NCBI GenBank assembly: GCA_038208905.1
Contig: JBBQYG010000012.1
Location: forward strand, 1-43,340
DNA from: Candidatus Sumerlaeia bacterium
GTDB taxonomy: Bacteria > Sumerlaeota > Sumerlaeia > SLMS01
Length of the DNA: 43,340 nt
Direction: 5' to 3'
The notes beneath the pieces were generated by a model, which saw only the letters and a program-made list of their open reading frames with translations, did no database searches and was not told the DNA's origin. Every line of letters begins with the position of its first letter. Position 1 is the stretch's first letter. The position numbers and the translations under genes are program-made. Positions 1,305-31,969 of the stretch are shown here, one piece after another.

Positions 1305-2240
1305 ATGCGCACTCGAATTTATGCTGCTATGTCCGCGGCCCTGATGCTTGCCGGATCCACGGCAATGGCCGGCTTTGGCACACCCGCAATCGATGGAACG
1401 CTCGACGCCGCCTATGGCGCCGCCGTATCGGTGCAGACTGTCCGCACGGCATTCGGCAGTTCCACCAACGGCAACCTGATCGGCGGCGGCGGCAGCGAAC
1501 TCAACGGCCTCTATCTGGCCAACAACGGGTCGACGCTGTTTGTCCTCCTCACTGGCAACGTCGAGTCCAACGGCAATACCCTGTATATCCTGATCGACGA
1601 TGTGTCCAACGCGGCGGGCCCCAATGTGCTGCCGAACACGCCGGGCAAGGACGACCTGTTCAACACGAACAAGCTGGGCGGAGCCACCATGCCGGTGGGC
1701 TTTGGGCCGGAATGGGGATTCGTGTTCAAGGGCTTCATGAACGGCGCCATCGGCGGCCCTTCGGACTATGACTATGTCTATTCGATCGCCAACTTCGTCA
1801 CGGGGACTTCGGTCGCTCCGGCGCTCGATCAACCGACGCTGGCTTTGGTGAATCCGGCGACGGGGACTGATTCCACCGCGGGCTACCCGATCACCTTTGC
1901 GCTGGACAATTCCAACGTCGCCGGCGTCAACGGCGGCATCAACCCCGATTGGGCCATCGTGGCCGAGACCCCCGCGACGGTGACCACGGGATACGAGATT
2001 GCCATCCCCCTCTCCGCCATTGTTCCCGCGACCACGGGCAACCTGAAGATCCTCGCCTACATCAGCAGCGGAGACGGCACCTTTGCCGCCAACCAGTTCC
2101 TTCCGCCGCTCGTGCCCGCCATCGGGAACGTTGGCAATCCGCCCCCGGGTGGCTACCTCTTCCCGACGCTCGGTTTGACCGCGGCCAGCTACTCGCTGGT
2201 GGTGCCGATGTCGGCGCCGAGCTGGAATCTCTACGAATAA
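1305..2240 (+). CDS. Secreted protein (Sec signal peptide) with C-terminal W-x-L-Y motif
   Basis: MRTRIYAAMSAALMLAGSTAMA signal peptide and AAGGA RBS. Body (IDGTLDAAYG..VQT..GSELNGLY..LTGNVESN) resembles domains seen in PEP-CTERM proteins. Ends VVPMSAPSWNLYE. Confidence 0.8.
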   Translation: MRTRIYAAMSAALMLAGSTAMAGFGTPAIDGTLDAAYGAAVSVQTVRTAFGSSTNGNLIGGGGSELNGLYLANNGSTLFVLLTGNVESNGNTLYILIDDVSNAAGPNVLPNTPGKDDLFNTNKLGGATMPVGFGPEWGFVFKGFMNGAIGGPSDYDYVYSIANFVTGTSVAPALDQPTLALVNPATGTDSTAGYPITFALDNSNVAGVNGGINPDWAIVAETPATVTTGYEIAIPLSAIVPATTGNLKILAYISSGDGTFAANQFLPPLVPAIGNVGNPPPGGYLFPTLGLTAASYSLVVPMSAPSWNLYE

Positions 2241-2260
2241 GCAGCGCGCCAGACCGCTGT

Positions 2261-2300
2261 AAGAATCCCCGCCGGGCGACCGGCGGGGATTCTTTATTTT
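2261..2300 (+). terminator. Intrinsic terminator
   Basis: AAGAATCCCCGCCGG-GCGA-CCGGCGGGGATTCTT perfect 15-bp stem followed by TATTTT, 20 nt after the stop codon. Confidence 0.85.
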
Positions 2301-2333
2301 CAGGGCGCCAGCGCGGCGCCACAACGAGCCGGG

Positions 2334-2470
2334 CTACGATCGGCCCGGGGGTGTATCTGATTGATGACTGGAGGCAGGGGGAGCGGCTTCGGGTTCGAGG
2401 AACTCCAGCGTGATGAGCGAGTTCATCGGCACCTCGTCGTGGGTCCAGCTCCGGGTGAAGACGAGGCGCG
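2334..2470 (-). pseudogene. Possible 3' remnant of an unknown gene
   Basis: Frame RLVFTRSWTHDEVPMNSLITLEFLEPEAAPP... has strongly GC3-biased codons but no evident start or RBS. Confidence 0.3.
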
Positions 2471-2523
2471 AGGGACAAGGAAACTGGCAAGCCGTTTGGT
2501 TTGTTTTTTGGCGGGAGCGAGTC

Positions 2524-3348
2524 CTACCCAAACAGATCGCCCGACTCCGGCACGGCGCGCGGGTCGCCGAGCATGGTGGCGAGTGCCAGCGCGTCGAGGA
2601 TGGCGTTTCCATCGGGGTGGTTGTTGAAGAAGACCAGGGTGCTGGTGGCCTTTTCCGCCGCATCGCGCAGGGCGGGAATCCACGGGTGGAGCTCGCCGGC
2701 CTGATAGCGGTAGCGATAGCGCGAGTCGCCGGCGGGATCGCCGTGGCCATACCACGCGGCGGCGTTGCGTCCGTGAAAGCGGACGTAGGCGATGGGGCCC
2801 GTGGGCGCGGCGCGGCGCGACTCGGAGAGACCCCGCAGCTCGGGCTGGTCGATCGCGACGCGCGATACCGCCATGTCGGCCAGGAAGGCGTCGGCGGCGG
2901 CGTTGTCCCAGGAGGCGTGCCGCAGCTCCACGGCGAGCGGCAATCCGGCGAGTGCCCCGCACGCTTGGCGGATGAGACCGCGACCCTCCGTGGTGTTGTG
3001 GAGTCCGTTGGGAAACTGAAGGAGCACGGCGGAGAGTACGCCGCCCTCGCGAAAGGGCTCCAGATAGTCTAGGAACGGATTCACCGCGGCGGCGTCGGCG
3101 CGGCCGCGGTGGGTCACGTCGCCGGGGGCCTTCACGGAGAAGGCGAGCCGCCCGCGCGCCTCGCGCACGGCGCGCCGCGCGGCGTCGGGCCTTGGCGTGC
3201 CGTAGTAGGTGGAGTTGATTTCCAGCGCGCGGAAGACAGAGGCATAGTAGTCCAGCCGCGCCGGCTTCGCGAGGCCGCGCGGATAGAACACGCCGTGCCA
3301 CTCGTCATAGGAATAGCCGGAGGTGCCGAGGAGGAGAGTCGCGGTCAC
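2524..3348 (-). CDS. DUF72 domain protein (YecE-like TIM barrel)
   Basis: GTSGYSYDEW..FYP, EINSTYY, FSVKAP, LLQFP, AVELRHASW, YVRFHGRN, FFNNH. The GTG start overlaps the polymerase TGA (GTGA). Confidence 0.92.
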   Translation of the reverse strand: MTATLLLGTSGYSYDEWHGVFYPRGLAKPARLDYYASVFRALEINSTYYGTPRPDAARRAVREARGRLAFSVKAPGDVTHRGRADAAAVNPFLDYLEPFREGGVLSAVLLQFPNGLHNTTEGRGLIRQACGALAGLPLAVELRHASWDNAAADAFLADMAVSRVAIDQPELRGLSESRRAAPTGPIAYVRFHGRNAAAWYGHGDPAGDSRYRYRYQAGELHPWIPALRDAAEKATSTLVFFNNHPDGNAILDALALATMLGDPRAVPESGDLFG

Positions 3349-5645
3349 CGGATGGAACTCCCGAAAAGGTCTGTCTGCGTCGATGCGGCGCGCGTGGGCT
3401 TCGCGGGCCGCGCGCGCGGGACGGGCGCCCACGGCGGCACGATGCGTTTCTCCTCCAGCGCGGTGCCCGCCGGCCACAGCAGCGTGTTCATCGCGCGACG
3501 CAGCATCCTGATCGCGGCCACGGGATCGGCGGTGGTCTCCGCGTCCATCAGGCTTTGCAGCCGCACGCGGCGCGAGCGGTCGACGTCGCTCCCCGACGTG
3601 ATCACATAGCTCAGCGATTCCCCCGCGTGCAGGTTCAACCCCGCCTCCACGGCCTGGCGCGCGGCGAGCGACTGGGTGCCGTTGCCGGTGTATTCGTCGG
3701 GCTCCTGGGAGAGGCTCTGCCTGATGAGAAGTTCCTCGAGCGGGACCTCGTTGCGCCACAGGGCGTCCTCCATCTCCGCAATGCGCGAGAGGAGTTCCGG
3801 CACCATCGCGCGATATGCCTGGGCGTCGGTTGCGGCGGCAAGGCGGCGCAGCAATTCAAGCTGGGCGGACTTCACATAGCCGGGGAGGTCGCGGCGGCGG
3901 CATTCGATCCCGCGGAACTTGACCGAGCCATCGCGGAACGCGCCGAAATAGCGCGTGGGCACGGGGCGATCCGGCACCTGGCGCGAGGGAAGGAAGGCCA
4001 GCCAATTGTAGATACCCTCCAGCGCGATCGGCAGATTGGTGGCCGCGGTGATCGCGTCACAGAGCGCCGGGACCTCCTCCTCGCCAAAGCCCGGCTTCAC
4101 GATCCACACGCAGTCCACATTCGCGTGCAGCATCCGCCAGCCGGCCTCCTCGCAGACGTCGCGCGCGCGCAGCAGCATCTCACGCGAATACGCCGAGACC
4201 GACTCGTGGGCCTCGATGCGGCCAAAGCGCGCGTTGCGGTAGCCCAGATAGCCAAAGCAGCAGACGAGCATCCACTTCAGCGCGTCCTGGCGCTGGTCCC
4301 ACCGCGCATAGGCCACGGTGTCGCCAGCCTCCTTGGCGCGCTTGCGCAGGACCTTGTACTGGACGCGCTTGGCGATGATCGGCGCGAGCGCGCGGGAGAC
4401 CAGGCCCGCGCGCTTCTCGCAAATCGTATAGTTGATTTCGGGCACCGCCTCGTTCCGGCAACACGCGCAGTTCACCGTCTCGGGAGAGACGTTGAAGCGC
4501 GACATGATGCTGGGATACATGGCGACGAAATCCAGCTCCACCACGTTCTGGTGCAACCCCGTTTCCGGCGCATAGACAAGGCCGCCGCGATCGGCCTTGA
4601 GCAGCTGGCGCGCGCTCTTCCACGCCTCGGGCTGGGTCTTCTTCCACGGGATCAGCAGCCCCTCCCGCCAGGCATGGTCCAGCTGGATCGAGGAAATCCC
4701 CGTGCCGATGCTGCGCCGCGCGATGCGCTGCATGGGAATGCGGGAAAGGCGCGCCACCTCGTACAGCCCGTCCATCCCATCGTGCGACAGCGTGAAGGAA
4801 TTCTTCCGGTCGAGATGCCACCGTCCACGCAACGCATACTCCGGCGCCTGGTACAGGATGCGGCCGTAGGAGAAAAACGACCGCCCATCGGTCTTGATCT
4901 CCCGCGAGTCCGGCGCCGCGTCGCGGTCGAGCCGCAGCGCGAACCGCGACCGCTTGGCCAGCGTGAAGAGCAGCGGCAGCAGGAACGAATCGCCCCGATC
5001 CGTCAGGATCAGGTCGGGATCCAGATCGTCCACCGCCCGCTGAAAGCTCGGCAGGATTTCGCCCGCATCGTCCCACGTGACGGCGTGTTCCTCGTGCTCC
5101 ATCGTCAGCGAGCGGAGCACCGGCCGCGGACCCTGCAGCGTGCCCACGCCGGAGAGTTCCACGATGCGCAGCGGCGGCGCCGCGTACTCCGTGGCCCAGC
5201 GGTCGTCTTCCCGCTCCAGCGAAAGCAGCCGCCGCTGTGCGTCGTGCTCCACGCGGCACCGCATCAGCGGAAACACATCGCGCTCGAAACCATAGGTCTG
5301 CTCCGGCGGCAGGTCGGCATTGTGCCAGCACAGCAACGGAAACCGGTCGGCGTGGCGATCCAGCGCGCGCCGCCACGTTTCCACGCGGAGCAGCCGGATC
5401 GCAAACACGCGGCGCAGCTCGCCCGTCCAGAAATCCCGTCGCTCCGTCCAGCCCTCCGGCGCTGCGTCGCCGGCCTTTTCCATCGCGCGCAGACAGGCGT
5501 CGATCTCCCGCCCGGGCCCCTCCACAAAAACAAGCGGCTCGTACGCATCCACCAGCCGCAACCGCTCCCCCCCATCCATGATGAACCACAGGACCATCCC
5601 GCCCCCCTGGGCGTGGTAGTCAAAGAGCCACCCTGCGGCGGTCAT
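3345..5645 (-). CDS. polB2: Family B DNA polymerase, PolB2 (archaeal-type) subgroup
   Basis: Motif A DRGGLVYAP...LDFVAMYPSIM..NVSPET; motif B RQDALKWMLVCCFGYLGY; divergent motif C LHANVDCVW; KFRGIECRRRD; degenerate exonuclease region; PolB2-type gene neighbourhood. Confidence 0.88.
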   Translation of the reverse strand: MTAAGWLFDYHAQGGGMVLWFIMDGGERLRLVDAYEPLVFVEGPGREIDACLRAMEKAGDAAPEGWTERRDFWTGELRRVFAIRLLRVETWRRALDRHADRFPLLCWHNADLPPEQTYGFERDVFPLMRCRVEHDAQRRLLSLEREDDRWATEYAAPPLRIVELSGVGTLQGPRPVLRSLTMEHEEHAVTWDDAGEILPSFQRAVDDLDPDLILTDRGDSFLLPLLFTLAKRSRFALRLDRDAAPDSREIKTDGRSFFSYGRILYQAPEYALRGRWHLDRKNSFTLSHDGMDGLYEVARLSRIPMQRIARRSIGTGISSIQLDHAWREGLLIPWKKTQPEAWKSARQLLKADRGGLVYAPETGLHQNVVELDFVAMYPSIMSRFNVSPETVNCACCRNEAVPEINYTICEKRAGLVSRALAPIIAKRVQYKVLRKRAKEAGDTVAYARWDQRQDALKWMLVCCFGYLGYRNARFGRIEAHESVSAYSREMLLRARDVCEEAGWRMLHANVDCVWIVKPGFGEEEVPALCDAITAATNLPIALEGIYNWLAFLPSRQVPDRPVPTRYFGAFRDGSVKFRGIECRRRDLPGYVKSAQLELLRRLAAATDAQAYRAMVPELLSRIAEMEDALWRNEVPLEELLIRQSLSQEPDEYTGNGTQSLAARQAVEAGLNLHAGESLSYVITSGSDVDRSRRVRLQSLMDAETTADPVAAIRMLRRAMNTLLWPAGTALEEKRIVPPWAPVPRARPAKPTRAASTQTDLFGSSIR

Positions 5646-5695
5646 GGCCGCCGCCCCTGCCGGGAAAAGTTGGAGGATAGGGTGGCCAAGGACAT
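5642..5695 (-). CDS. Putative leaderless 17-aa uORF (MSLATLSSNFSRQGRRP) translationally coupled to polB2
   Basis: ATG directly after the promoter/operator motif. Its TGA overlaps the polB2 ATG (ATGA). Confidence 0.45.
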   Translation of the reverse strand: MSLATLSSNFSRQGRRP

Positions 5696-5730
5696 GGCGA
5701 ATAAAAAGCGAATCTAGCGCGCCGTGTCAA
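5696..5730 (-). promoter_or_regulatory. Promoter (-35 TTGACA) with direct-repeat operator ATTCGC-N5-ATTCGC, copy 1
   Basis: Minus strand reads TTGACACGGCGCGCTAGATTCGCTTTTTATTCGCC-ATG, nearly identical to 6883-6918. Confidence 0.7.
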
Positions 5731-5813
5731 GCCCGCCCCCGATGGGGTTGTATTCGGGGCGGGTTGGGAATACCATCATGACGCGTTGGATGCGACGCTG
5801 AAGAGAACTGGTC

Positions 5814-5918
5814 ATGGACTGGACAGAACGAATCGCTTTCGATCCCGACGTGTGCCATGGCAAGGCGTGCGTCAAGGGCACGCGGGTGATGGTATCCGTG
5901 GTGATCGCCGATCCTTGA
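5814..5918 (+). pseudogene. Truncated DUF433 (COG2442) antitoxin-like gene, 5' part
   Basis: MDWTERIAFDPDVCHGKACVKGTRVMVSVVIADP* matches the DUF433 N-terminus (RI..DP.V.hGKP.I.GTRI.V) but stops at 34 aa. Confidence 0.8.
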
Positions 5919-6028
5919 CTTTGGCGAAGCTGGTAATCGACAAGTTGGAAACGCATCAATTGCCGGGCAGGCTATGGTCCGTGGATGAGCGGACAATCCG
6001 CGTGAGGGGCGCGGCAAAGCCGGGTTGA
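5919..6028 (+). pseudogene. 3' remnant of a DUF5615/PIN-like toxin gene
   Basis: LAKLVIDKLETHQLPGRLWSVDERTIRVRG resembles the C-terminal ...G.l.vvd..riRvR tail of DUF5615 proteins, the usual partners of DUF433. Confidence 0.55.
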
Positions 6029-6032
6029 ACGT

Positions 6033-6296
6033 TCATCCCCGTTCCCCCCGCAACCCCTCAACCTCCACCGCCAGCCGCTCCAGCTCCAATTCCTGCTCCA
6101 GCAGGATCGCCATCACCATCGCGTCGAAGGGCACCGGGCGCGCCGCGCAGGTGGCCTCCGCCGTGTGGCGGCGGGCGCGGGTGAACAGGCGGTCGAAGGC
6201 CGGGCGCTGTTCAGCCCTCAGGCCCCGGCGAAAGTCCCTCCAGGAGTCGATCTCCGCCTGGAGCCAGGTGTTGAAAGTCGGCAGCGTTCGTCCCAT
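6033..6296 (-). CDS. Small helical PolB2-associated protein (arCOG07300-like)
   Basis: MGRTLPTF...W..FRRGLR.E....FDRLF..ARRH...P.PFDAMVMAILLEQE matches the small protein encoded with archaeal PolB2. Confidence 0.8.
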   Translation of the reverse strand: MGRTLPTFNTWLQAEIDSWRDFRRGLRAEQRPAFDRLFTRARRHTAEATCAARPVPFDAMVMAILLEQELELERLAVEVEGLRGERG

Positions 6297-6918: not shown

Positions 6919-6982
6919 TCAGGGAAGCCACCGCGTGCTACCCATGTCCTGAACCAATCCCTGCTTCTTCCCACCCACCCCA

Positions 6983-7031: not shown

Positions 7032-8099
7032 CTACTCCTTGACCGGCGCGAACTGCTTGAAGCGCTCCTTGTCGAGCGACTTCATGTAGGCCTCGGTGCC
7101 GTCCACCAGGCCCTTCTGCAGGTAGCCGTCGATGCAATCGTCCATGAGCTGCATGCCGAGGGCGCGATTGGACATGATGATCTGGGTGAGCATGGCGTTC
7201 TTCCCCTCGCGGATCGTGTTGGAAACGGCGAGGTTCTGGATCAGGATTTCGTGGGCGGCGATGCGGCCCTTGCCGCCGGTCTTCTTGAGGAGGAGCTGGG
7301 CGCAGATCGCCCGCAGCGTCACCGCCAGCGATTGGCGGATGGCGTTCTGCTGGTCCGCGGGGAACACGTCGATGATGCGGTCAACGGTCTTCACGGCGCT
7401 GTTGGTGTGCAGCGTGCCGAAGACCAGCGTCCCCGTCTCGGCGCCGCTCACCGCGAGGCCGATCGTCTCCAGGTCGCGCATCTCCCCCACCAGCAACACG
7501 TCGATGTCCTGGCGGCTGGTCGCCTTCAGCGCCGCGGCGAAGCTGGGCACGTCGATCCCCACCTCGCGCTGGACGATGGTTGATTTCTTGTTGGGGTGGA
7601 CGAATTCGATCGGCTCCTCCACCGTCATGATGTGGCGCGCGGTGGTGGTGTTGATGAAGTCTATGACGCCGGCCAGCGTGGTCGATTTGCCGGAGCCCGT
7701 GGGCCCCGTGACCAGGCACAGCCCCGCGTTGAAGCCGCCAAACGTCTTGAGCACGGGCGGCGCGCCGAGATCCTCCAGCGTCAGGATCTTCGAGGGAATC
7801 GTCCGGAAGACCGCGCCGTATCCCGCGTACTGCTTGTTGTAGTTCGCGCGAAAGCGGGCCTTCTTCTCATAGGCGTAGGCGAAATCCAGGTCGCCCGTCT
7901 CCACGAAGCGCTCCCACCGCTTGGGGATGCAGATCTCGCTCAGCATCGACCCGAGCGTCTCCCCGTCCAGCACCCCCCACCCGGCGATCGGCGACACCTC
8001 TCCGTGGAGCCGGAGCTTGGGCGGCTGCCCCTGCGCCAGATGCAAGTCCGACGCCCCCGAGGAGAGCATCGCATCAAAAAGCTGGTCGAGGACGGCCAT
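7032..8099 (-). CDS. pilT: Type IV pilus retraction ATPase PilT
   Basis: ASDLHL, Walker A GPTGSGKSTT, EEPIEF, VQREVG, Walker B LLVGEMRD, ETG..VFGTLHTN, AVSNTIREGK. Confidence 0.9.
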   Translation of the reverse strand: MAVLDQLFDAMLSSGASDLHLAQGQPPKLRLHGEVSPIAGWGVLDGETLGSMLSEICIPKRWERFVETGDLDFAYAYEKKARFRANYNKQYAGYGAVFRTIPSKILTLEDLGAPPVLKTFGGFNAGLCLVTGPTGSGKSTTLAGVIDFINTTTARHIMTVEEPIEFVHPNKKSTIVQREVGIDVPSFAAALKATSRQDIDVLLVGEMRDLETIGLAVSGAETGTLVFGTLHTNSAVKTVDRIIDVFPADQQNAIRQSLAVTLRAICAQLLLKKTGGKGRIAAHEILIQNLAVSNTIREGKNAMLTQIIMSNRALGMQLMDDCIDGYLQKGLVDGTEAYMKSLDKERFKQFAPVKE

Positions 8100-9645: not shown

Positions 9646-10476
9646 ATGAAGAAGATAATCTACAGCGCGGCAATCGCCGCAGTCGCCATGGCCGCCGCCC
9701 CGGCGTATTCGCAGCTCCCCGCACTTCAGGATTTCACGGGTCTCAACTTGGCCGAGTTGAATGGCCAGGGCGGATGGAACTTCAGCGGCACGAACACGAC
9801 CCCCGTTATCAACGTCACGACAGGCGACGTGGACATCGTTGGCCTTCCCGCGCAGAGCGGCGACCGTTCCATCACCATTGAGGGTTTGGGTCAGGACGTC
9901 GGCCTTTCCTTCGGATCCGCCATTACTCCCACTGGCGGCGCCCTGTATGCCTCCTTCGCGATCGTCGTGACGGCGACGGCTGGCAATTTGGATGCCGACA
10001 CCCCCCCCACCAACCCCTCCGCCAGCAATAACGACGACGATTACTTCTTCCACTTCACAGAGGGAATTCTGGCCAGCGGTTCCGGCTTTCGCGGCCGAAC
10101 CTTCATCGACCGTGGCGCCACGGGATTCTATCTCGGTGTCCGCACGACCTCGGGAGATCCTGGCACCTACGCCCCCACTGAGTACGCATTTGGTACGCCG
10201 ACCTTCGTCGTCGTGAAGCTCAACTTCAATCCGGGCATCACGGACGACACGGTCCAGATTTTCGTGAATCAGGCAGTTGCCTCGGAGCCTGTTTCCGCCG
10301 ACGCCACGGAAGCGACCGCGATCGACTTCGCAGCCATCGGCCGCATTGGCTTCCGTCAGGATAGCGTTCTCGAGACCCCCAACATCCGGATCGATCAGGT
10401 TCGTGTTGGCGAGACGTGGGCCAGCGTCGTTCCCGTCGCCCCCTCCGCCGTCTCCGACTGGTCGATGTTCAACTAA
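9646..10476 (+). CDS. Secreted beta-sandwich-like protein with C-terminal W-x-M-F motif
   Basis: MKKIIYSAAIAAVAMAAAPAYS signal peptide and AGGAGA RBS. IDQVRVGETWASVVP is followed by VAPSAVSDWSMFN*. Confidence 0.85.
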   Translation: MKKIIYSAAIAAVAMAAAPAYSQLPALQDFTGLNLAELNGQGGWNFSGTNTTPVINVTTGDVDIVGLPAQSGDRSITIEGLGQDVGLSFGSAITPTGGALYASFAIVVTATAGNLDADTPPTNPSASNNDDDYFFHFTEGILASGSGFRGRTFIDRGATGFYLGVRTTSGDPGTYAPTEYAFGTPTFVVVKLNFNPGITDDTVQIFVNQAVASEPVSADATEATAIDFAAIGRIGFRQDSVLETPNIRIDQVRVGETWASVVPVAPSAVSDWSMFN

Positions 10477-10582: not shown

Positions 10583-12001
10583 CTACCCCTCGTCCTTAAC
10601 CTTGTCGAACGTCTGCTTGTTGTTGGCGCAGCGATAGGCGTCGCGTCCGGTGATGATCTTCTGGGCGAGGAGGGCGCCGAGGGAGTCCTCCATGAGTATC
10701 ATGCCCTGGCGCTTGCCGCCCTGGATCATGGAGGTTACCAAGTGGAGCTTGTTCTCCTTGATCTGGGTCGCCACGCCGCTGGTGTTGACGAGGACCTCCA
10801 GCGCGAGGGCGCGGCCCTTGCCGTCCACGCGGGGGATAAGCTGCTGGCTGATGACGCCGCGCAGGGATTCGGCGACCATGACGCAGATCTGCTTCTGCTG
10901 GCTGATGGGATAGGCGTCGACGATGCGCGCCACGGTGCGCGCCGCGCTGCCGGTGGGGAGCGTGCCGAAGACGAGATGGCCGGTCTCCGCCGCGCTGATG
11001 GCGATGGAGGTGGTCTCCAGGTCGCGCATTTCGCCGATCAGGATGATGTCGGGATCCTCGCGCAGGGCCGCGCGCAAGGCGTTGGCGAAGCTCATCGTGT
11101 GGCGGCCCACCTCGCGCTGGGTCACTTGGCAATGCTTCGCCGGGATCACGTACTCGACGGGGTCCTCCACGGTGATGATGTGGTCGTGGCGGGCCATGTT
11201 GACGAGGTCCACGAGGGCGGCGACGGTGGTCGTCTTGCCGGAGCCCGCAGGGCCCGTGACCATCACGAGGCCCTGATTGTATTCGGTGAAGACGCGCAGG
11301 CTGGCGGGGAGGCCAAGCTCCTCCAGCGTGGGGACAGAGGAGCGGATGATGCGGTAGGAGCCGTCCCACCCGAGGCGCTGCTTGAAGATGTTGCAGCGAT
11401 GGCGCCCGACGCCCTCGATCTCGAGCGCGAAGTCGAGCTGCTGGTTGTCCGCCGCCGTGGCGCGCTGGTCGTCGTTGAGGCCGGAGAAGTTGAGTTCCTC
11501 GGCGCGCTCCGGCGTGAGGATGTCCATCTCCATGTAGCGGATCTGGCCGTGGAGCCGGACGAACGGCGGGCGCCCGACGGTGAGGTGAAGGTCCGAGCAT
11601 CCCCAATGCCGCGCGAGGCGGAGAAACCCGACGAGTGTCTTGGGCTTGGAGAGGGATTCGCCCTCCGCCGTGGCGATGGAACTGGGGGCGGGCGACGGCG
11701 GCGCCGACGCCACGCGCGTGGTGGGCGGCATCGCCGCCGCGGCAGACTGGTTGGCCATGCGCTGGGCGGCGGTGGGGGGCATCTGGCCAACGGATTCGTC
11801 GCCCTGGCCGGAACCGCTGCCGAGCTGCGCGTGGAGGTCGGCCAGTTGGCTCTCCGTCACGAGAAGCCGCGCGAGCAGGAGTTGGCCGAGGTCGCTGGCC
11901 ACGCCGGCGTCGATCTCGTCGTGGATCATCTCCGCCTGCTTGCGCGTGAGGAGCCTGCCCTGCAGCGCCAGCTCCAGCAATTGTCGATCGGATTCCGTCA
12001 C
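10583..12001 (-). CDS. PilT/PilU-family ATPase with N-terminal helical extension
   Basis: CSDLHL, GPAGSGKTTT, EDPVEY, QREVG, ALREDPDIILIGEMRD, AETGHLVFGTLPT. Probable GTG start at VTESDRQLL. Confidence 0.88.
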   Translation of the reverse strand: MTESDRQLLELALQGRLLTRKQAEMIHDEIDAGVASDLGQLLLARLLVTESQLADLHAQLGSGSGQGDESVGQMPPTAAQRMANQSAAAAMPPTTRVASAPPSPAPSSIATAEGESLSKPKTLVGFLRLARHWGCSDLHLTVGRPPFVRLHGQIRYMEMDILTPERAEELNFSGLNDDQRATAADNQQLDFALEIEGVGRHRCNIFKQRLGWDGSYRIIRSSVPTLEELGLPASLRVFTEYNQGLVMVTGPAGSGKTTTVAALVDLVNMARHDHIITVEDPVEYVIPAKHCQVTQREVGRHTMSFANALRAALREDPDIILIGEMRDLETTSIAISAAETGHLVFGTLPTGSAARTVARIVDAYPISQQKQICVMVAESLRGVISQQLIPRVDGKGRALALEVLVNTSGVATQIKENKLHLVTSMIQGGKRQGMILMEDSLGALLAQKIITGRDAYRCANNKQTFDKVKDEG

Positions 12002-12098
12002 GGGTGGGAGAGCCTTCCCGCCGGCGAGCCCACGGGCCCCGGCGCAGCGAATCGTCCTTGTAGGGGAAGCTGGCGGTCGCAGGCTGAAAGGGTCAAGG

Positions 12099-12209
12099 GG
12101 GGGAACGGCGGGAAAAACGGAAACAGCGGGAACAGCGGAAAAAACCGCTACCCTCGTCCATTCCGTCAATGCTGTCGATCTGGTCAATCTCGTCCATTGC
12201 GCCCATTCC
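12099..12209. repeat. Two adjacent degenerate 9-nt tandem repeat tracts
   Basis: GGGAACGGC/GGGAAAAAC/GGAAACAGC... followed by GTCCATTCC/GTCAATGCT/GTCGATCTG/GTCAATCTC/GTCCATTGC. Confidence 0.65.
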
Positions 12210-12363
12210 GCCCGGGAAACCACCACTGGCGACCCTGATTTTCCTTATTTCATTGCATCGGTTCTTTGCCGGTTGACTCGGAACGCGGAATGCTTTGCGG
12301 TGTAACCACTTACACGAAATCATGTGTAGGGAAATTCACGGAACCGCCCGATGGGAAGCCGTC

Positions 12364-16278: not shown

Positions 16279-16376
16279 GCGCACGCCACGCTTCCAGATC
16301 CTGAAGCGCGCACGATCATGGCGCTGGGCCCGGTTGTTCCTTGCCACGCAACCGCCCCCTTGGTGATTGCTTCGGC

Positions 16377-21653: not shown

Positions 21654-22904
21654 TTAGAGCGAAATGACACCCGGGAAGTCGAATTTTTTCCCGAGGGCCA
21701 AGGCCGGATCGGTGGCGAACCACTTGGAGAGCACCTCCGAATAGACCCCGCGGAAGTCCACGGTGTGCTTGAGGTCGCCTTCGTCCAGGTCCGTGAGGCT
21801 TGGGTAGGCGCCGTGGACGCCGGGCTTTATACCCGCACCCGCCAGGAACATCGGCCCGGCGGTTCCGTGGTCGGTGCCGCGGCTGGCGTTCTCGGTGACG
21901 CGACGGCCAAACTCCGAGAAGGCGACGACCATGACGCGGTCCTCCGCGCCGATCTTCTTGAGGTCGGCGAGGAACGCGGTGAGCGCGCCGCTGAACTCGC
22001 CGAGCAGGCGACCATGACCGTTGAGCTGGTTGGCGTGGGTGTCGAACCCGCTGATCGAGGTGTAGTAGATCCGCGTGGGAAGCCCGCCGGCGATGAGCGT
22101 GGCGATGGACTTGAGCTGGGTGCCAAGGCGCCCGCCGGGATAGGTGACGGGATCGCGCTTGGTGGCGGCGGCCTTGATCACGCGGTCGGAGCTGATGACG
22201 GCGTTGGCCGCGGTGTGGCGCAGGAAGTCGATGGTCTCGCCCTCCGAATCATGCTTGTGGGAGACCATGTTGATCGTGTCGAGGGAGGGTCGAAGCGCGC
22301 CCTTGTTGCCGTCGAACCATGCGAAGCGACTGGCTTCGGTGAAGCTGACGCCGACGCCCTTCTTGCCGAGGAACGCCTGGGGGAGTTCGCTCCCGACGTT
22401 GACGCCCGCGACCGGGTCGCTGCCGGAGCAGCAGTTGTCGAAGTAGCGGCCCACCCACCCCTCGCGCGAGTAGCGGTTGGAATCCACGGCGGTCTGCCAG
22501 ATTTCCATCGAGCGGAAGTGGGACCGGTTGGGGTTGGGATACCCGACGCCGTTCACGATGCCGAGGCCACCGCTGTCATACAGGTCCTTGAGCGCCGACA
22601 TCTCTCCGTTCATCGCGACATTGTCGTCGATGCGCAGGAGGGTTTTCTTATCCAGCGCGATGTTCTTGCGCGCCTTGAAGTAGTCGTCGTTGCCGTGGGG
22701 CACGATGGTGTTGAGGCCATCGTTGCCGCCGCCGAGCTGGACCACCACCAGAATGCGGTCGTCCTTGAAGCCCGGGATCACGCCCCGCGCCGCGCTGGCC
22801 GAAACCGTATCGGTCAGGAACGCCGGCAACGACGCGCCAAGGGTCGCGATCAGCGTCCCCTGCATGAACTCTCGCCGGGTGAAGATGTATTTTGCGTCGC
22901 GCAT
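21654..22904 (-). CDS. DUF1501 domain protein with Tat signal
   Basis: TRREFM Tat motif, LVVVQLGGGNDGLNT, GVGYPNPNRSHFRS, GFDTHANQ, FSEFGRRV.ENAS.GTDHG, DFRGVY. Confidence 0.92.
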   Translation of the reverse strand: MRDAKYIFTRREFMQGTLIATLGASLPAFLTDTVSASAARGVIPGFKDDRILVVVQLGGGNDGLNTIVPHGNDDYFKARKNIALDKKTLLRIDDNVAMNGEMSALKDLYDSGGLGIVNGVGYPNPNRSHFRSMEIWQTAVDSNRYSREGWVGRYFDNCCSGSDPVAGVNVGSELPQAFLGKKGVGVSFTEASRFAWFDGNKGALRPSLDTINMVSHKHDSEGETIDFLRHTAANAVISSDRVIKAAATKRDPVTYPGGRLGTQLKSIATLIAGGLPTRIYYTSISGFDTHANQLNGHGRLLGEFSGALTAFLADLKKIGAEDRVMVVAFSEFGRRVTENASRGTDHGTAGPMFLAGAGIKPGVHGAYPSLTDLDEGDLKHTVDFRGVYSEVLSKWFATDPALALGKKFDFPGVISL

Positions 22905-22934
22905 GGGAGGAGCCTTTTGGGGAATAGGGAATGG

Positions 22935-23046
22935 CGAACGGCGGGAAAAACGGGAAAGGCGGAAAAGGCGGTTGGGGGAGGGTGACTTAGCGCGGAGTCG
23001 ATTCCAGACCGCCGTCTCCGCTTTTCCCGTCGTTACCGCCGTTCCC
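22935..23046. repeat. Inverted pair of 9-nt tandem repeats
   Basis: GCGGGAAAA ACGGGAAAG GCGGAAAAG ... GTCTCCGCT TTTCCCGTC GTTACCGCC GTTCCC. Confidence 0.65.
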
Positions 23047-24588
23047 CTAGCACAACTGATATTCCGGCGTCGAAAGCAGCAGATGAAGCGCACTGGCGGC
23101 ACGGGTGTTGTCGTAGCTGGCGGCGGTAAGGACGGCGTTGGTGTCGGGTCCGCCCATGAGGACTTGGGCGACGGAGGCGCGCTGGGTGGGGGTGATGGGG
23201 CGCCCGAGGAAGGTCCACGCCAGAGAATCGACGACTTGCGTGGCGGTTTTTCCCTGAAGCGGGCGATAGTGGGCGATGACGTCGGCGGGGCGGGGGTTGC
23301 GCTTCGCGGCGACACGCGCGCGGCGTTCGGCGGGAGCTTCCTCGCCCTCGGCCATTTCGCGCGCGGGGGCGACCTCGTCCAGCGCGAGGGTGCGGCCCTG
23401 GGGCGGGCGCTCCCCGACGAGTATATACGCGGGGATGTTGTAGCGCAGCAGCAGCGTGTTGGTGTTGATCCACGCGCGGTTGCCGGGCCAGCCCTTGACA
23501 TTGGGCGGATAGAAGAGGTCCTGGCCGAGCCCGCGCATCGCGAGGCTCACGAGTTCGGCGCGCGGTACCCCGTAGCCGAGCTGGCCCGCGAGCATCACGA
23601 TGTACTGGGCGGGGGATTTGATCTGACCCTGCATCGCGCGCGTGGAGTAGAATTCCCGCGAGAGGAAGATCGCCCGCAGGAGCGGCTTGAGTTCGTAGTT
23701 GGCGCCGCGGAATACGGCGGCGAGTTCCGTCACCAGCTCGTCGCTCGGATTCTCGTAGGCGAAGTACTGCCAGATCTTGCGGGAGATGAACCGCGCCGTC
23801 TCGGGCTGCTCGAAGATAATGTCCACAACGTCCTTGCCGTCGAACTCGCCGGTGCGGCCAAGGAACGTCTTGCTGCCGAAATCGTGGTTCTTCTCGTCGA
23901 AGTAGAACTCGCCGCCGCGCTCGGTGAAGCCGCTGAAGGCGCGGGCGGCCTCCTTGATGTCGGCCTCGGTGTAGTTGCCGATTCCCATCGTGAAGAGTTC
24001 CATCAGCTCGCGCGCCCAGTTCTCGTTGGGGCTGCCCTTGCGGTTGGACTTGTTGTCGAGATACTCGAGCATCGCCGGGGTCTTGCCGACGGCGAAGACA
24101 AGCTCGCGGAAGTTGCCGGTGGCGTGGGTGCGGAAGACCGTGTTCAGCTGCAGGTTGTGGATGGGCTGCTTGATCTCCTGGGCCGACGTGGCGAAGTGCC
24201 CGTGCCAGAAGAGCGCCATCTTCTCCTGAAGGGGTCGTGTGGTGTTGACCATCGCGCCGATCCACCAGCCCTTGAGCTTCTCGATTTCCTGGCGCTGCTG
24301 GCGCTGGATTTCGTTGTTGGCGCGCTGGCGCTCCTCGGGCGTGAGCCCCGCGAGCGCCCTGCGCTTCTCCCCATATTCGGCAAGCGACGTCACGAAGTCG
24401 GTCGCCTCCAGATTGTCGTCGAAGTGCTCATACTCGACGAGCGCTCCCACGCACTGGGTGGGCCCCGCGCTGACCATCTCGTCCACCTTGGACAGCGGCA
24501 CGCCGAACCCCGCGCGGTTCAGCAGGTGGCGGGCGGCAACCTGATTCCAGGAAAAGCCCTTGTCGGTGGGCGCTAGAAATGTGGACAC
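23047..24588 (-). CDS. DUF1800 domain protein
   Basis: ARHLLNRAGFG, LQEKMALFWHGHFATS, PAMLEYLD, PNENWARELMELFTMG, YTEADIKEAARAFSG, PPNVKGW, PEYQLC. Start uncertain (GTG 24588 or TTG 24639). Confidence 0.92.
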   Translation of the reverse strand: MSTFLAPTDKGFSWNQVAARHLLNRAGFGVPLSKVDEMVSAGPTQCVGALVEYEHFDDNLEATDFVTSLAEYGEKRRALAGLTPEERQRANNEIQRQQRQEIEKLKGWWIGAMVNTTRPLQEKMALFWHGHFATSAQEIKQPIHNLQLNTVFRTHATGNFRELVFAVGKTPAMLEYLDNKSNRKGSPNENWARELMELFTMGIGNYTEADIKEAARAFSGFTERGGEFYFDEKNHDFGSKTFLGRTGEFDGKDVVDIIFEQPETARFISRKIWQYFAYENPSDELVTELAAVFRGANYELKPLLRAIFLSREFYSTRAMQGQIKSPAQYIVMLAGQLGYGVPRAELVSLAMRGLGQDLFYPPNVKGWPGNRAWINTNTLLLRYNIPAYILVGERPPQGRTLALDEVAPAREMAEGEEAPAERRARVAAKRNPRPADVIAHYRPLQGKTATQVVDSLAWTFLGRPITPTQRASVAQVLMGGPDTNAVLTAASYDNTRAASALHLLLSTPEYQLC

Positions 24589-28837: not shown

Positions 28838-28904
28838 GCGGTTGGTGTCTCCTGAGCGGGAGACTCGCGGTGGATTGCCGGGCGAGCAAGGGGGAAGCGG
28901 AGGG

Positions 28905-28991
28905 GGCGACCAAAGGGACAACAGGGCCGAAAGAGGATCACCCCGTTCCGCCGGTCATCGCCCCTTTGGTCCCTGCCGTCCCTTCTGTCCC
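28905..28991. repeat. Inverted pair of 9-nt tandem repeats
   Basis: GGGACAACA GGGCCGAAA GAGGATCA ... GCCCCTTTG GTCCCTGCC GTCCCTTCT GTCCCT. Confidence 0.6.
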
Positions 28992-31969
28992 TAAAACAAG
29001 ACCCACTGCGCCGCGCTGCTGGTCGGCGCAAAGAACGTCAACGCGGCCGCCATGACCTGGGCGCGCTGGGGGGCGGAGCCGATGGTCTCGAACGGGAAGC
29101 CGAAGGACAGCACCTTGGCGGGGCCACCGTAGGCCACCGCGGCGGTGGTGCCCGTGGAATAGGTCATGGCGATGTTCGATCCATTGGAGACGCCATAGGT
29201 GTCGGGGGTTTCCGCGTTATAGCGCGCGCCGCTGGCGGTCGAGAACACGATCGACGTTAGCCCCGCGAAGGGGCCACCCGCCGTGCCGTTGACGGTGTAT
29301 GTTCCCGCGCTGTCGCCGACGTAGGCCGTGCGCATGAATCCGTTGAAGAACGCGACGTCGCCGGCGGAGGAGACTCCCGCGCGGCCGAGGTCCCAGCCCA
29401 CTTCCGCGCCGGAGAAGAACAGGTTCTTTCCCGGCAGGCCGAGGTATGCCTGAAGGCGGGTCTGCTCGTTGGCGGTCAGCACCTCGTCGGTGGTCGATTC
29501 CTCTCCGGCGATCCAGACAACCACGTCGTAGCTGGCGAGGTTCACGGTGCCATCGGCGACGCGTTCGTTGCAGGTGCTGCTGACGCGGAGGCCGAGCGGC
29601 TGGAGGGCCTCGCCGTGCTCCACCACGTAGTTGAAACCCTGAAAAGTGCGGGGGTCGTGGCGTGTGATGGCGCTGCCCGCGTTGGTGATGGCAACGACGG
29701 GGATCTGGGAGCGTTGGTTGCGGTCGAACCCGTTGACAACGAGGACGCTGGCGCCGCTGGCCGAGCAGACAACCAAAGTCTCCGTGGGGAAGGACTGCCC
29801 ACCGGCGTTCTGGGCCGCGACGCGGAAGTAGGTGGTGTCGCCGGGGACGAGATTGGCGATCGTGGTGCTGGTTCCGGCGACCGTGACGCCATCGTCGAAG
29901 CCGAATCCGTTCTTGCTGCGGAAGACGCGATAGCTGGTGGCGGCGGCGCCGTTGAAGCCACCCGCCGCGCCCGCGGACCAGCTTAGCGTGGCGGTGGTTC
30001 CGCCGCCCAGCTCAGCGCGGAAGTTCAGCGGGATCTCCGGCGGATAGGGCCGCGAGGTGCCGTCCTTGGCGTTGAAGAAATCGATGAGGCCCTGGGTGAT
30101 GGCGCGCGCCATGATCATGCGGAGGCGGGGTTCGTTGTAGTCAAGGCCATCGGGGGCGCCGTCGTGAAAGAGGCCTTCCAGCAGCATCCCGGGGAGCCCG
30201 GTGCCCAGACTCGCCTGATTGTTCTCGCCAAAGTCGGTGACGCTCTTGCCGCGCACCTGCCAGACGCGATCGGTGAACCAGAGCGTGTCGGCGGCGTTGT
30301 ATATCTTGTCGTGCAGCGTTGTCTGGAGCGTGGCGGAGAGGGCGGTGGCAGAACTGTGGCGGAAGGAAGAGAGCCCCGTGGCCGTTCCGCTGCACGCGCC
30401 GGTGGTTCCGTTGAAGGCGTTGGTGTGCCATGCGAAATAAACAGCATCCTCGACGCTCGCGTCCTTCTGGCTGTGCTCCCACCGGGCGTACTGGGGGCGG
30501 TCGGACCACCCGCCCTGTTCGTCGTCAACTCCCGTGTAGAGCGTGCCGCTGTACCCGAATCCCGTGTACTGGAGGTAGTGGACGGCCTCCTCCTCCCAGC
30601 GGGGGCGGTTGCTGATGCGGCCCACGGTTTGCCGCGCGATGTCGCCCATGCCGCCGCCCCAGCGCACCGCGTCGGCGGAGACGTTGGTGGCGGTGGTGTC
30701 CTGGCTGCTGTTGGTGAGGACTACCTTGCGCTCATTCTCGGGCGCGTTAGCCTCGAAGTACCAGTTGCCGAGGAGCACCCACGTATATCCATCGATCTTC
30801 TGGTTCACGCGGATTTCGCTGATGCCTCCGCTGTGGTGGACGAGGTACTGGGCATCGTTGGCGCGCGCGGCGAAACCCGTCCAGCTTGCATAGACGTTGT
30901 AGTAGCCGTTGGCCGGGATCGTCGATGTCCACGTGGCGGTCGCTGTGGGCGCGCCGGTCGTCACCGATGAGGAGAGGCGGTTCTGGCCCGCGCCCTGATT
31001 GAACGGATTGATCGTCTTGCCGGTCCACTGGGCGGTGGTCTTCTGCACGAAGCCATTGAGGCCGGAGTTGGCCCAAGTCCCCGTTTCCACATATCGCCCG
31101 TTGGCGAGGCCCGCCGCCGTGTCGCTATTGTCCACGATGACCATGTTGGTCTGGTGATCCGGCTCGCGGACGGTCATCACCTTGGCGCCCCCGTTGCGCA
31201 GCATCTGCAGCACATACAGGTTCAGAAACTCCGCGCTGCCAAAGTCCTCCAGCGTGTTGCAGGTATTACCGCGCTGAACGCGGAAACGTCCGAAGTCCAC
31301 ATCGTCGAACCAGCCGTGGGACTGATTCATGAAGATGGTCTTGTTGCTGAGGGAGCCCACGGGCTGGCCGGGGTTGATGACGGGGAGCGACTTTGATTCG
31401 GAATACTTCGGAAACGGATCCTTCCCCTGCGCCTTGGACATCGCGACCGACACCTCGTCTACCGGGGGAATCCACTTCGGCATCTCCTCAGGCGGGGCGA
31501 TCTCGTCGGGTGAGAGGTACTGATTCAGCGAGGGATCCCAGATGCGCAGGAAGTAGCCGCTGATGTTTTCCTCCATCAAGGCCGCGATGAACTCTTTGCC
31601 CATTGCAGCGACACGATACGCGGTCAGCTCGTTGGTGAGGAAAAACTCCTCGGGAAAGCGCAGATAGACCTGCACGTGTTCCGGGTCGCCGTTGGCGTCG
31701 GCTTGTGGGTACTCGATCTTGTCGATGACGGTGCCGGGAGGGAATGGCGAGGGTGGACGATTCAGCGAGACGGCGTCCTTGTTTTCCTCGATGGCGGCTT
31801 GGACGAGTGCGCCCACGCGGTCGGACTTGGTGTCGCCGAAAAGGGACTTCCTGAGGTGCACATAGTCGCCCGGGAACTTGTGATACTGGCACGCGGAGGC
31901 GGTGCCCGCCTGCATCGCCAGCGCAGCGATCGCGAGGGCGAATGCCCCTTTTCCAAGAAATGATTTCAT
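28991..31969 (-). CDS. Secreted N-acetylmuramoyl-L-alanine amidase-like multidomain protein (golvesin-like insert, FN3) with C-terminal W-V-L-F motif
   Basis: Signal peptide. Amidase_3 Zn ligands IFMNQSHG / LEDF / AWHTNA / LLEGLFHD; insert IVDN..W..GYYNVYASW..WVLLG..ADAVRW; FN3 (LSWSA..YRVFRS..YFRVAAQNAGGQS). Ends APTSSAAQWVLF. Confidence 0.8.
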   Translation of the reverse strand: MKSFLGKGAFALAIAALAMQAGTASACQYHKFPGDYVHLRKSLFGDTKSDRVGALVQAAIEENKDAVSLNRPPSPFPPGTVIDKIEYPQADANGDPEHVQVYLRFPEEFFLTNELTAYRVAAMGKEFIAALMEENISGYFLRIWDPSLNQYLSPDEIAPPEEMPKWIPPVDEVSVAMSKAQGKDPFPKYSESKSLPVINPGQPVGSLSNKTIFMNQSHGWFDDVDFGRFRVQRGNTCNTLEDFGSAEFLNLYVLQMLRNGGAKVMTVREPDHQTNMVIVDNSDTAAGLANGRYVETGTWANSGLNGFVQKTTAQWTGKTINPFNQGAGQNRLSSSVTTGAPTATATWTSTIPANGYYNVYASWTGFAARANDAQYLVHHSGGISEIRVNQKIDGYTWVLLGNWYFEANAPENERKVVLTNSSQDTTATNVSADAVRWGGGMGDIARQTVGRISNRPRWEEEAVHYLQYTGFGYSGTLYTGVDDEQGGWSDRPQYARWEHSQKDASVEDAVYFAWHTNAFNGTTGACSGTATGLSSFRHSSATALSATLQTTLHDKIYNAADTLWFTDRVWQVRGKSVTDFGENNQASLGTGLPGMLLEGLFHDGAPDGLDYNEPRLRMIMARAITQGLIDFFNAKDGTSRPYPPEIPLNFRAELGGGTTATLSWSAGAAGGFNGAAATSYRVFRSKNGFGFDDGVTVAGTSTTIANLVPGDTTYFRVAAQNAGGQSFPTETLVVCSASGASVLVVNGFDRNQRSQIPVVAITNAGSAITRHDPRTFQGFNYVVEHGEALQPLGLRVSSTCNERVADGTVNLASYDVVVWIAGEESTTDEVLTANEQTRLQAYLGLPGKNLFFSGAEVGWDLGRAGVSSAGDVAFFNGFMRTAYVGDSAGTYTVNGTAGGPFAGLTSIVFSTASGARYNAETPDTYGVSNGSNIAMTYSTGTTAAVAYGGPAKVLSFGFPFETIGSAPQRAQVMAAALTFFAPTSSAAQWVLF

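Follow-up and report, generated by a model that had tools for sequence, protein, structure and literature searches.

A nine-residue C-terminal tail with a conserved tryptophan, a probable address label on exported proteins of a little-known bacterial phylum

We here describe a short C-terminal tail with a conserved tryptophan (W tail) that is probably an uncatalogued address label on exported proteins. In the window, the whole stretch of 43,340 nucleotides analyzed, three cargo proteins carry it (Table 1). All three tails of a preliminary description of this DNA are present, each ending at its stop codon; the coordinates given there span only the last 10–11 codons of each quoted string. That the W tail is a functional sorting or docking tag appears very likely to us; what reads it is far less certain.

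Table 1. Features of the window discussed in the text
Feature	Position	Strand	Remarks
Cargo 1	1305..2240	+	311 aa; signal-peptide-like start
W tail of cargo 1 with stop	2208..2240	+	M-S-A-P-S-W-N-L-Y-E; W at −5
Cargo 2	9646..10476	+	276 aa; one lectin/glucanase-like beta-sandwich; signal-peptide-like start
W tail of cargo 2 with stop	10444..10476	+	S-A-V-S-D-W-S-M-F-N; W at −5
Cargo 3	28991..31969	−	992 aa; Golvesin_C and fn3 domains; signal-peptide-like start
W tail of cargo 3 with stop	28991..29020	−	S-S-A-A-Q-W-V-L-F; W at −4
pilM-N-O-P-Q-like operon	34124..39702	−	PilM_2, PilO and secretin matches; one of several candidate export routes

The excess of W tails in the genome of this uncultured bacterium is far above chance. 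Among 3260 called genes with a stop, obtained with a home-made caller, 67 reached a position-matrix score of ≥8, compared to 1.3 expected from internal pseudo-termini. Two of them were removed by hand, C66:3725 as a prepilin and C79:9850 as a protein of cytoplasmic appearance, leaving 65 tagged proteins. The pattern W.[LMIV][YF] ends with the last residue in 25 of the 3260 genes and with the penultimate residue in 22, while each of the next 38 offsets yields 0–5. Within the window, 3 of 33 called genes score as tagged (22–28) and the other 30 at −2.6 or less.

Across the tagged set, the consensus reads S-S-[VA]-x-[DN]-W-x-[LM]-[YF], with W in 64/65 proteins, L, M, V or I at +2 in 60/65 and Y or F at +3 in 48/65. 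Hydrophobic residues occupy +2 in 94% and +3 in 89%, and +1 is mostly S, M, Q or N. The W-x-[LM]-[YF] core proposed initially thus stands, but the proline placed ahead of it does not (P at −7 in 17/65, at −6 in 14/65). Counted from the C-terminus, W sits at −4 in 32 proteins, at −5 in 27, and at −6 and −7 in 3 each; 3–6 residues follow it before the stop. The final residue is variable (Y, F, E, N, Q and similar), with no basic cluster, and the column counts reveal neither an invariant Cys nor a Gly-Gly motif, nor any invariant residue upstream of W.

Which proteins carry the tail? Their bodies show no mutual relationship and are of kinds usual for secreted or surface cargo. Pfam families were matched in 28 of 51 scanned tagged proteins, among them GH18, GHL10, CotH, trypsin, M12B, PAD, FG-GAP and a multihaem cytochrome, and none in the other 23. 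Polymer-degrading and adhesin-like proteins occur in the set, and their homologues elsewhere bear surface signals. By crude heuristics, signal peptides are predicted for 52/65 tagged proteins against 918/3260 in the background, or 44/61 against 409/2448 under a stricter rule—the enrichment to be expected of an export-related tail. The view that the tail involves neither a TM helix nor a CTD likewise holds: at most one further TM-like window occurs in the whole set of 65 tagged proteins, and none of the 51 scanned matches a CTD. A short linker rich in Pro, Ser and Thr joins the tail to the folded body, leaving the tail outside it. Exported proteins of this genome bear other C-terminal modules as well, namely nine dockerin-like ends, all on untagged proteins, and one shared C-terminal module.

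The homologues of the three cargo proteins are particularly informative. Cargo 1 has no match in either Pfam or NCBIfam; most of its homologues terminate in a dockerin-like module or PEP-CTERM. Cargo 2 homologues end in a W tail, a T9SS CTD, PEP-CTERM, IPTL-CTERM or the PVEL tail introduced below, and cargo 3 homologues, many of which additionally bear a PF01520 amidase, in a W tail, a PVEL tail, a dockerin, or a MYXO-like or T9SS end. In an AlphaFold model of cargo 2 the tail lies outside the domain with low confidence; the free tail is a low-confidence helix and not the strand proposed below. Had homologues kept the tail inside each fold, a sorting role would have been doubtful; instead, all three bodies exchange it for other anchors at one junction. 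Because PEP-CTERM-, T9SS-, dockerin- and MYXO-type ends occur at that same junction, the W tail fills a sorting-signal slot outside the fold, and it is this position, where other bacteria place known surface-address signals, that underlies our reading of it as an address label.

The tail is not confined to one genome. A clear excess is seen in 46 of the 73 phylum genomes and in 12 of 18 families; judging from the names on close homologues, this phylum is probably Sumerlaeota. Matches to two narrow DNA patterns number 516 versus 90 and 295 versus 14 in reversed controls, in line with the preliminary description, in which such tails were said to be common there; 12/73 genomes have ≤2 matches. 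A second tail, P-V-x-L-S-x-F-x-[VIL]-[ED]-stop (PVEL tail), is found in 19/73 genomes and has the same hydrophobic register at −3, 0 and +2. In T9SS cargo, its counterpart is the strand with which an fn3-like domain begins. Both tails interchange on homologous cargo, and hybrids exist (P0288, P0299). Together, the shared register, the swapping and the hybrids favor one strand-reading receptor, and the initial idea of beta-strand augmentation is indirectly supported by the PVEL tail.

How does the W tail compare to catalogued signals? Tripartite sorting signals are described in bioRxiv 10.1101/2023.06.07.544157 as lying near the C-terminus, in many copies per genome and mostly on signal-peptide carriers. 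Like these signals (PEP-CTERM/exosortase, IPTL-CTERM, MYXO-CTERM/myxosortase, GlyGly-CTERM, LPXTG), the W tail is C-terminal, abundant within a genome and attached to unrelated signal-peptide proteins at the same junction; unlike them, it lacks both a TM segment and a basic cluster. Exosortase (PF09721) was found in 0/4 phylum genomes (94–97% complete), with a planctomycete control positive; in a genome-wide PEP-CTERM search the control was silent. Homology to IPTL-CTERM was rejected, as its similar motif T-L-S-E-W-G-L obtains −4.5 with the tag matrix. With the T9SS type A CTD (TIGR04183/PF18962) the W tail shares the nature of a non-membrane C-terminal signal on periplasmic intermediates, and the same place on cargo 2 and 3 homologues, but the CTD comprises ~75 residues and the W tail nine. 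Por_Secre_tail matched none of the 51 scanned tagged proteins and only once in the genome, inside an untagged 2015-aa protein. PorV (NF033709) was found in 0/5 genomes, with a Bacteroides control positive, and SprA (PF14349) in 0/5, its control likewise being without any match. Dockerins, including the planctomycete GC-type (NF041540), are terminal docking modules as well and replace the tail on homologues, yet the W tail has neither calcium-binding D-x-N-x-D-G repeats nor a folded module; no dockerin match was obtained on tagged proteins, and no cohesin-like partner for the tag was identified. Finally, in ligands of PDZ or TPR carboxylate clamps and in the OMP beta-signal the key residue always comes last, whereas the W tail varies there and places W at −4 to −7.

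Type IV pili offer another comparison. According to PMC13533445 and PMC13711793, PilK/PilX serves as the docking site for PilC/PilY1 tails, in which a W is conserved. Those tails (and that of MshQ) resemble the W tail in comprising ~10 terminal residues on Sec-exported proteins, with W near the terminus, a hydrophobic +3 and no TM helix. One or two charged residues follow W there, however, where the W tail has x-L/M. The PilC/PilY1 tail is required for pilus assembly and is bound within the tip complex. Moreover, PilC/PilY1 are few beta-propeller adhesins, whereas W tails sit on ~65 unrelated bodies per genome, and the PilK/PilX partner lacks a last strand of its own, while the core K pilins here keep theirs. 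For T2SS payloads, strand addition on PilK is not needed, per the discussion section of PMC13533445. The PilY1 family matched none of the 51 scanned tagged proteins; a genome search with PF05567 was empty, its control being silent too.

Could the tag nevertheless be read by T2SS/type IV filament parts? We consider the chances about even. In favor, both GspK types occur in 70/73 genomes, three secretin types, including that of the window's pilMNOPQ operon, in 5/5 genomes tested, and the searches for exosortase and PorV gave no match in four and five phylum genomes, respectively; since candidate machines are present in nearly all genomes, tag-poor ones included, co-occurrence singles out none. 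No link between the window's operon and the tag was found. In a structural model (pLDDT ~91) the T2SS GspK has its own last strand in place, and the second GspK type keeps the terminal strand motif by sequence, with hydrophobic residues at −3, 0, +2 and +3 and W at 0 in 9/12, a register that in turn speaks for the W tail being an extended strand. As both core GspK proteins retain this strand, the slot filled by PilY1 elsewhere is occupied. Three K-like genes were found in this genome, and a K gene of the C66 pilus cluster could lie beyond the contig end. An HpsA-like third K pilin was rejected as sole reader, being found in only 43/73 genomes and absent from searches of the other 30, 18 of them tag-rich. 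The C66 cluster was likewise discarded, with a close ATPase orthologue (E ≤ 1e-100) in 8/73 genomes. Tagged genes in this genome lie near expanded pseudopilin genes more often than others (8/65 vs 16/507, p = 0.003). In a second genome, only 3 of 42 tags have a pilin motif at a distance of 3 kb or less, close to the ~6% expected by chance, and tag and pseudopilin counts do not correlate over the 73 genomes (Spearman −0.004); on these two grounds, a one-to-one relation to the expanded YDPTNG pseudopilins was rejected. None of 20 loci around both GspK types has a tagged gene directly after the K gene, the pilY1-like order; only one of them contains tagged genes, two in number, located after the T2SS operon. 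The search with PF14341 was uninformative because it recovered none of the known K pilins. A complex prediction of a 30-residue tagged tail with the second GspK minus its last ten residues and a cargo-adjacent pseudopilin scored 0.00, controls not having been folded, and weighs on neither side; a crude barrel scan of untagged exported proteins named no translocon. There is also a giant secretin with TPR-like helical regions, whose N-terminal helical region is, by eye, poorly conserved among five genomes.

We nonetheless favor, with roughly equal odds for and against, a model of the W tail as a linear C-terminal address or docking tag read by type IV filament machines. Cargo would be exported by Sec and fold in the periplasm, after which the last ~9 residues would insert as an extended strand into the groove of a single conserved receptor in the envelope, contacting it via the hydrophobic positions −3 (V/A), 0 (W), +2 (L/M) and +3 (Y/F). 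Since the tail accommodates 0–3 additional residues, the carboxylate at its end would not be the decisive feature; the tag is probably neither cleaved nor lipidated. The reader would most likely be part of a type IV filament machine of the phylum core, either the canonical T2SS or the giant TPR secretin together with a second cassette of minor pilins, and this machine would bring cargo to the outer membrane or across it. More tentatively, the intergrading W and PVEL tails might load folded periplasmic enzymes onto a T2SS/type IV filament machine by adding one beta-strand, imported T9SS cargo becoming substrates once cut after the first strand of their fn3-like domain.

Alternatively, the tail may act only after exit. 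Cargo would then leave through the T2SS independently of its tail, which would subsequently hold it non-covalently on an S-layer, a scaffold or a pilus-unrelated outer-membrane protein, much as dockerins bind cohesins. Dockerin, PEP-CTERM, MYXO-like and T9SS CTD ends all serve surface attachment, and these are the ends that replace the W tail on homologues; in addition, the GspK slots are filled in cis, and the genome has the further terminal modules on exported proteins mentioned above. We still judge such retention rather unlikely: no repeat-rich scaffold candidate emerged (one internal-repeat protein in the signal-peptide set), and a small eight-sequence profile retrieved no isolated fn3-like domain whose first strand is missing. 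Sortases and PorU cleave at a C-terminal signal and attach the body, and a lineage-specific periplasmic protease or transpeptidase could similarly cut before the tail and join the body to lipid or glycan. The tail does occupy the slot of PEP-CTERM and IPTL-CTERM, behind a short flexible linker, but no invariant residue upstream of W offers a scissile or acceptor site, no TM helix would present it to an intramembrane enzyme, exosortase and PorV were not found in the four and five phylum genomes searched, and the IPTL motif scores poorly on the tag matrix; processing is therefore improbable.

More improbable still is that the tail marks proteins for quality control or retention in the periplasm, recognized by the PDZ- or TPR-type clamp of a chaperone or a tail-specific protease and conveying no export address. 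A short, hydrophobic, terminal tail would suit such a clamp, the giant secretin has its TPR-like regions, and a short helix, such as the one modeled by AlphaFold, could be capped by S-x-x-D. However, the distance of W from the end and the variable last residue are unlike carboxylate clamps, the polymer-degrading or adhesin-like cargo has homologues with surface signals elsewhere, and the N-terminal helical region of the secretin looks poorly conserved. As for a non-functional relic or coincidence, the cytoplasmic-looking match and the 12 genomes almost devoid of narrow-pattern matches are what one would cite. Against these stand the observed over the expected number of tails, their tight terminal position, the unrelated bodies and the excess in two-thirds of the families: a chance origin is refuted, and the combined notion of relic or chance retains next to no credibility.

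No library model of the W tail was found, nor any literature describing it in a search of openly accessible articles. To our knowledge, every catalogued C-terminal sorting signal of diderm bacteria relies on a folded domain or a membrane helix; a linear tag of nine residues, present on ~2% of called genes, would represent a different sorting-signal architecture. It also gives an immediate prediction of the surface and secreted proteome for a little-known, polymer-degrading phylum. How the T2SS picks its folded substrates is, as far as we know, a long-open question. If the reader is indeed T2SS/pilus machinery, substrate choice would become testable with a synthetic peptide and the tag could act as a minimal secretion or display tag; loading by strand addition, if true, would make it a portable peptide signal for T2SS-type export.

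Does the W tail, S-S-[VA]-x-[DN]-W-x-[LM]-[YF] over about nine residues, behave as a signal rather than as a chance protein end? The preliminary description had claimed three aligned C-terminal tails in the window, and these are present, a stop directly following each. The search it proposed, W.[LMIV][YF].?$ over the proteome, matches 47 of the 3260 genes with a stop that a home-made dicodon model called in the source assembly (4.24 Mb, 301 contigs, 94% complete). Matches pile up at the terminus: 25 genes have W.[LMIV][YF] ending at offset 0 and 22 at offset 1, against 0–5 at each of the following 38 offsets. An iterated position matrix (score of at least 8) retrieves 67 genes against 1.3 expected from the same proteins truncated at internal points; because the matrix was trained on these very matches, the offset counts test the excess more cleanly. 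Two of the 67 were removed by hand, a prepilin on contig C66 and a cytoplasmic-looking protein on C79, leaving 65. The latter ends in D-T-W-V-L-Y, is the sole clear non-exported match and was treated as chance. As some carriers escape the matrix, among them C20:16925 and two proteins whose W is at −7, the true number of tagged genes is probably 65–75.

The 65 tails carry S/A/T at −5, S at −4, V/A at −3 (44 of 65) and D/N/G/E at −1; W occupies position 0 in 64, followed by L/M/V/I at +2 and Y/F at +3 (48 of 65), and then by the stop or by 1–3 polar residues and the stop. A core-only scan places W at −4 from the end in 32 genes, −5 in 27, −6 in 3, −7 in 3 and −8 in 1, and at any one position from −9 to −40 in at most 3. 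The anticipated enrichment among signal-peptide proteins holds under a lenient rule (52/65 tagged versus 918/3260 overall, p=2e-18) and a stricter one (44/61 versus 409/2448, p=9e-21); of the 13 tagged genes unmarked by the lenient rule, 4 are truncated at a contig start, 5 have a signal peptide recognisable on visual inspection and 4 have unclear starts. Of 51 tagged proteins scanned against Pfam, 28 had matches (GH18, GHL10, CotH, trypsin, M12B, PAD, FG-GAP, LTD, multihaem cytochrome and others) and 23 had none, with no sorting-signal model matching any; the suggested comparison with NCBIfam sorting signals likewise gave no match on 24 tagged proteins.

Features in the window, the source assembly (contig:position) and fetched loci
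Feature	Location	Strand	Remark
Cargo 1 gene	window 1305-2240	+	W tail at end
Family B DNA polymerase gene, then DUF72 gene	window 2524-5645	-	
T2SSE-family ATPase	window 7032-8099	-	probably PilT-like, apart from pilMNOPQ
Cargo 2 gene	window 9646-10476	+	W tail at end
T2SSE-family ATPase	window 10583-12226	-	probably PilT-like, apart from pilMNOPQ
577-aa signal-peptide protein	window 16341-18074	+	untagged, without Pfam match
ArgZ-like arginine dihydrolase	window 19280-21409	+	
DUF1800-DUF1501 pair	window 21654-24588	-	
Cargo 3 gene	window 28991-31969	-	W tail at end
pilMNOPQ	window		secretin-bearing
Cytoplasmic-looking protein	C79:9850-11331		removed by hand
Canonical T2SS operon	C33, C36, C132		
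~1400-aa TPR secretin	C1:40486-47445 (L069)		PilM-PilN fusion beside; weak Amuc_1098 model match
Second H-I-J-K minor pilin cassette	C180 (L025), C104		then GspG-like pilins
Small pilus cluster	C66:1-4300 (L071)		
YDPTNG pilin loci	L006, L075-L080, L093		
Nine dockerin-like ends	C6:940, C60:13491, C45:19033, C88:5227, C64:15097, C13:42568, C93:13332, C112:512, C13:38152		
Untagged carriers of another C-terminal module	C105:1371, C113:2929, C114:2954, C133:4461, C39:9911, C5:24674, C90:10868, C63:9206		

The tail stands outside the body fold. Homologues might have kept it as an integral part of each domain, as the preliminary description had considered; they do not, and ends vary on all three bodies. 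Among 85 homologues of cargo 1, 62 ends are PEP-CTERM-like, 12 dockerin-like, 1 PVEL-type (see below) and 10 otherwise, one of these a W-tail variant (classes assigned by regex, PF07589 being precomputed on 26 of 86 rows). Among the best 150 of 692 cargo 2 matches, 21 have W tails, 45 T9SS-CTD-like and 13 dockerin-like ends; a further 3 are PVEL-type, one of them doubtful, 2 are PEP-CTERM-like and 1 is STWG-type, which leaves 65 unclassified. The ends diverge directly past the last common motif of the alignment. In its AlphaFold model, the cargo 2 body, a predicted lectin/glucanase-like sandwich, reaches a pLDDT of ~90, the final blocks 69 and 51, and the tail is drawn as a short helix. For cargo 3, 78 homologues divide into 12 W, 12 dockerin-like, 3 MYXO-like, 3 T9SS-like, 1 PVEL and 47 other ends; by eye, some of these 47 are degenerate W and PVEL tails. 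Yet another short end, [ST]-W-G-x-[LI]-K-x-x-Y-R, occupies this junction on cargo 1 and cargo 2 homologues (P0077, P0137); P0077 has no NCBIfam match and P0137 no Pfam match. A dockerin-like single calcium-binding repeat forms a third kind of end in the source genome, and another C-terminal module is common to several of its large untagged exported proteins.

Alongside the W tail, unrelated exported proteins among the homologues bear short tails of the form P-V-x-[LVM]-S-x-F-x-[VILM]-[ED]-stop (PVEL). The corresponding DNA pattern has 76 matches in 19 of 73 phylum genomes (including G012, G013, G014, G019, G026, G057, G058, G062 and G064; none in the source assembly) and 0 controls. Fifteen fetched loci (L106-L120) cover 17 of these matches, all 17 being true open-frame ends on varied bodies, 11 with a signal peptide by eye. 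The native shape of the PVEL tail is most likely a strand, because in T9SS cargo (P0177, P0204, P0223) this sequence forms the start of an fn3-like domain. Aligned on the aromatic, PVEL tails are hydrophobic at −3, 0 and +2 and end at +3, as does the commonest W tail; homologous cargo bears either form, and hybrids occur (P0288, P-V-G-V-S-Q-W-N-L-D; P0299, named Sumerlaeota, P-V-E-C-D-T-F-T-I-Y). From this common register, the swaps and the hybrids, we infer a single receptor in which both tails would lie as an extended strand.

The preliminary statement that similar tails are common in Sumerlaeota is supported: the W tail is real and widespread in the phylum. Across the 73 genomes, the DNA pattern for [DN]-W-x-[LIM]-[YF]-stop matches 516 times versus 90 for reversed-pattern controls, and the version with one polar residue ahead of the stop 295 versus 14; the excess is at least 5 in 46/73 genomes and 12/18 families. 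Twelve genomes have two or fewer matches, and as these narrow patterns match only 16 times in the source assembly, a low count is no proof that the tail is absent. In four planctomycete genomes there were 6 matches versus 2 controls. The nearest Atlas cluster of cargo 2 is mostly Ca. Sumerlaeota, one homologue with a W tail bears the name Ca. Sumerlaea chitinivorans, and a homologue of cargo 3 with 62% identity is named Ca. Sumerlaeota; the source genome therefore probably belongs to this phylum.

The evidence gives good support to a role for the tag as an address or docking label, which we hold with high confidence. What, then, reads it? With working positive controls, exosortase was found in 0/4 phylum genomes and PorV in 0/5. 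The source assembly encodes one Omp85, four secretins and 39 YDPTNG-motif pilin frames; both GspK types occur in 70/73 genomes, YDPTNG pilins in 73/73 and three secretin types in 5/5 tested. The TPR-type secretin, also in 5/5, measures ~1400-1600 aa with a TPR-like N-terminal region (L069, L101-L105). YDPTNG pilins form an expanded GspG-like family with a near-invariant Y-D-P-T-N-G-T-x-S-x-G-D (5-95 motif matches per genome). In the second H-I-J-K cassette (L025, L081-L090), the ~800-aa K seems by eye to hold a lamin-tail-like insert, five GspG-like pilins follow in 7/10 loci, and no adjoining ATPase or platform gene was seen. The C66 pilus cluster has an I-like prepilin in frame after a multi-helix membrane segment, and a close orthologue of its ATPase in only 8/73 genomes. 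In the window, cargo 2 sits between the two T2SSE-family ATPase genes.

Type IV filament or T2SS machinery is our leading guess for the reader, with about an even chance of being right. The best precedent is the PilC/PilY1 tail: its final ~10 residues fill out the PilK sheet with a strand that T2SS GspK provides by itself (available text of PMC13533445), and it is reported to have a conserved W, then charged, then hydrophobic residues (available text of PMC13711793). A direct copy of the PilY1 mechanism is argued against by the T2SS GspK model, which predicts its own last strand in place, by the last strand retained in the second GspK, and by the finding of only three K-like genes in the source assembly, the third not found with the query used in 18 tag-rich genomes. 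The tag may instead act by mimicry of, or exchange with, the second GspK strand, since that strand has the tag's hydrophobic register. Pilin genes are immediate neighbours of tagged genes in 6/66 versus 12/507 cases in the source assembly (p=0.011, a count predating removal of the C66 prepilin) and lie within 3 kb in 8/65 versus 16/507; adjacency in a second genome, G001 (3/42 tags), is not above chance, and tag and pilin counts are uncorrelated across genomes. The adjacency could stem from co-regulation within sugar-use operons.

The W tail is uncatalogued. It operates like 'choice of anchor' C-terminal signals, yet fails the defining tests of T9SS CTDs, dockerins and PilY1, and departs from the defining criteria of tripartite signals in the available text of bioRxiv 10.1101/2023.06.07.544157. 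The preliminary view that it has neither the TM helix and basic tail of PEP-CTERM, LPXTG or GlyGly signals nor a T9SS CTD is supported. Neither Sumerlaeota nor BRC1 is mentioned in the available text of that paper, neither 'C-terminal' nor 'pili' in that of the Sumerlaeota genome paper PMC8092238, and a literature search with subscription papers and supplements outside its scope found no description of the W tail. Precedent comes from a C-terminal tag found throughout a phylum, for which passage to the surface via T2SS is predicted (available text of PMC11980579). New here are the swap test on three bodies, the link to PVEL through register, swaps and hybrids, and the evidence against several candidate readers.
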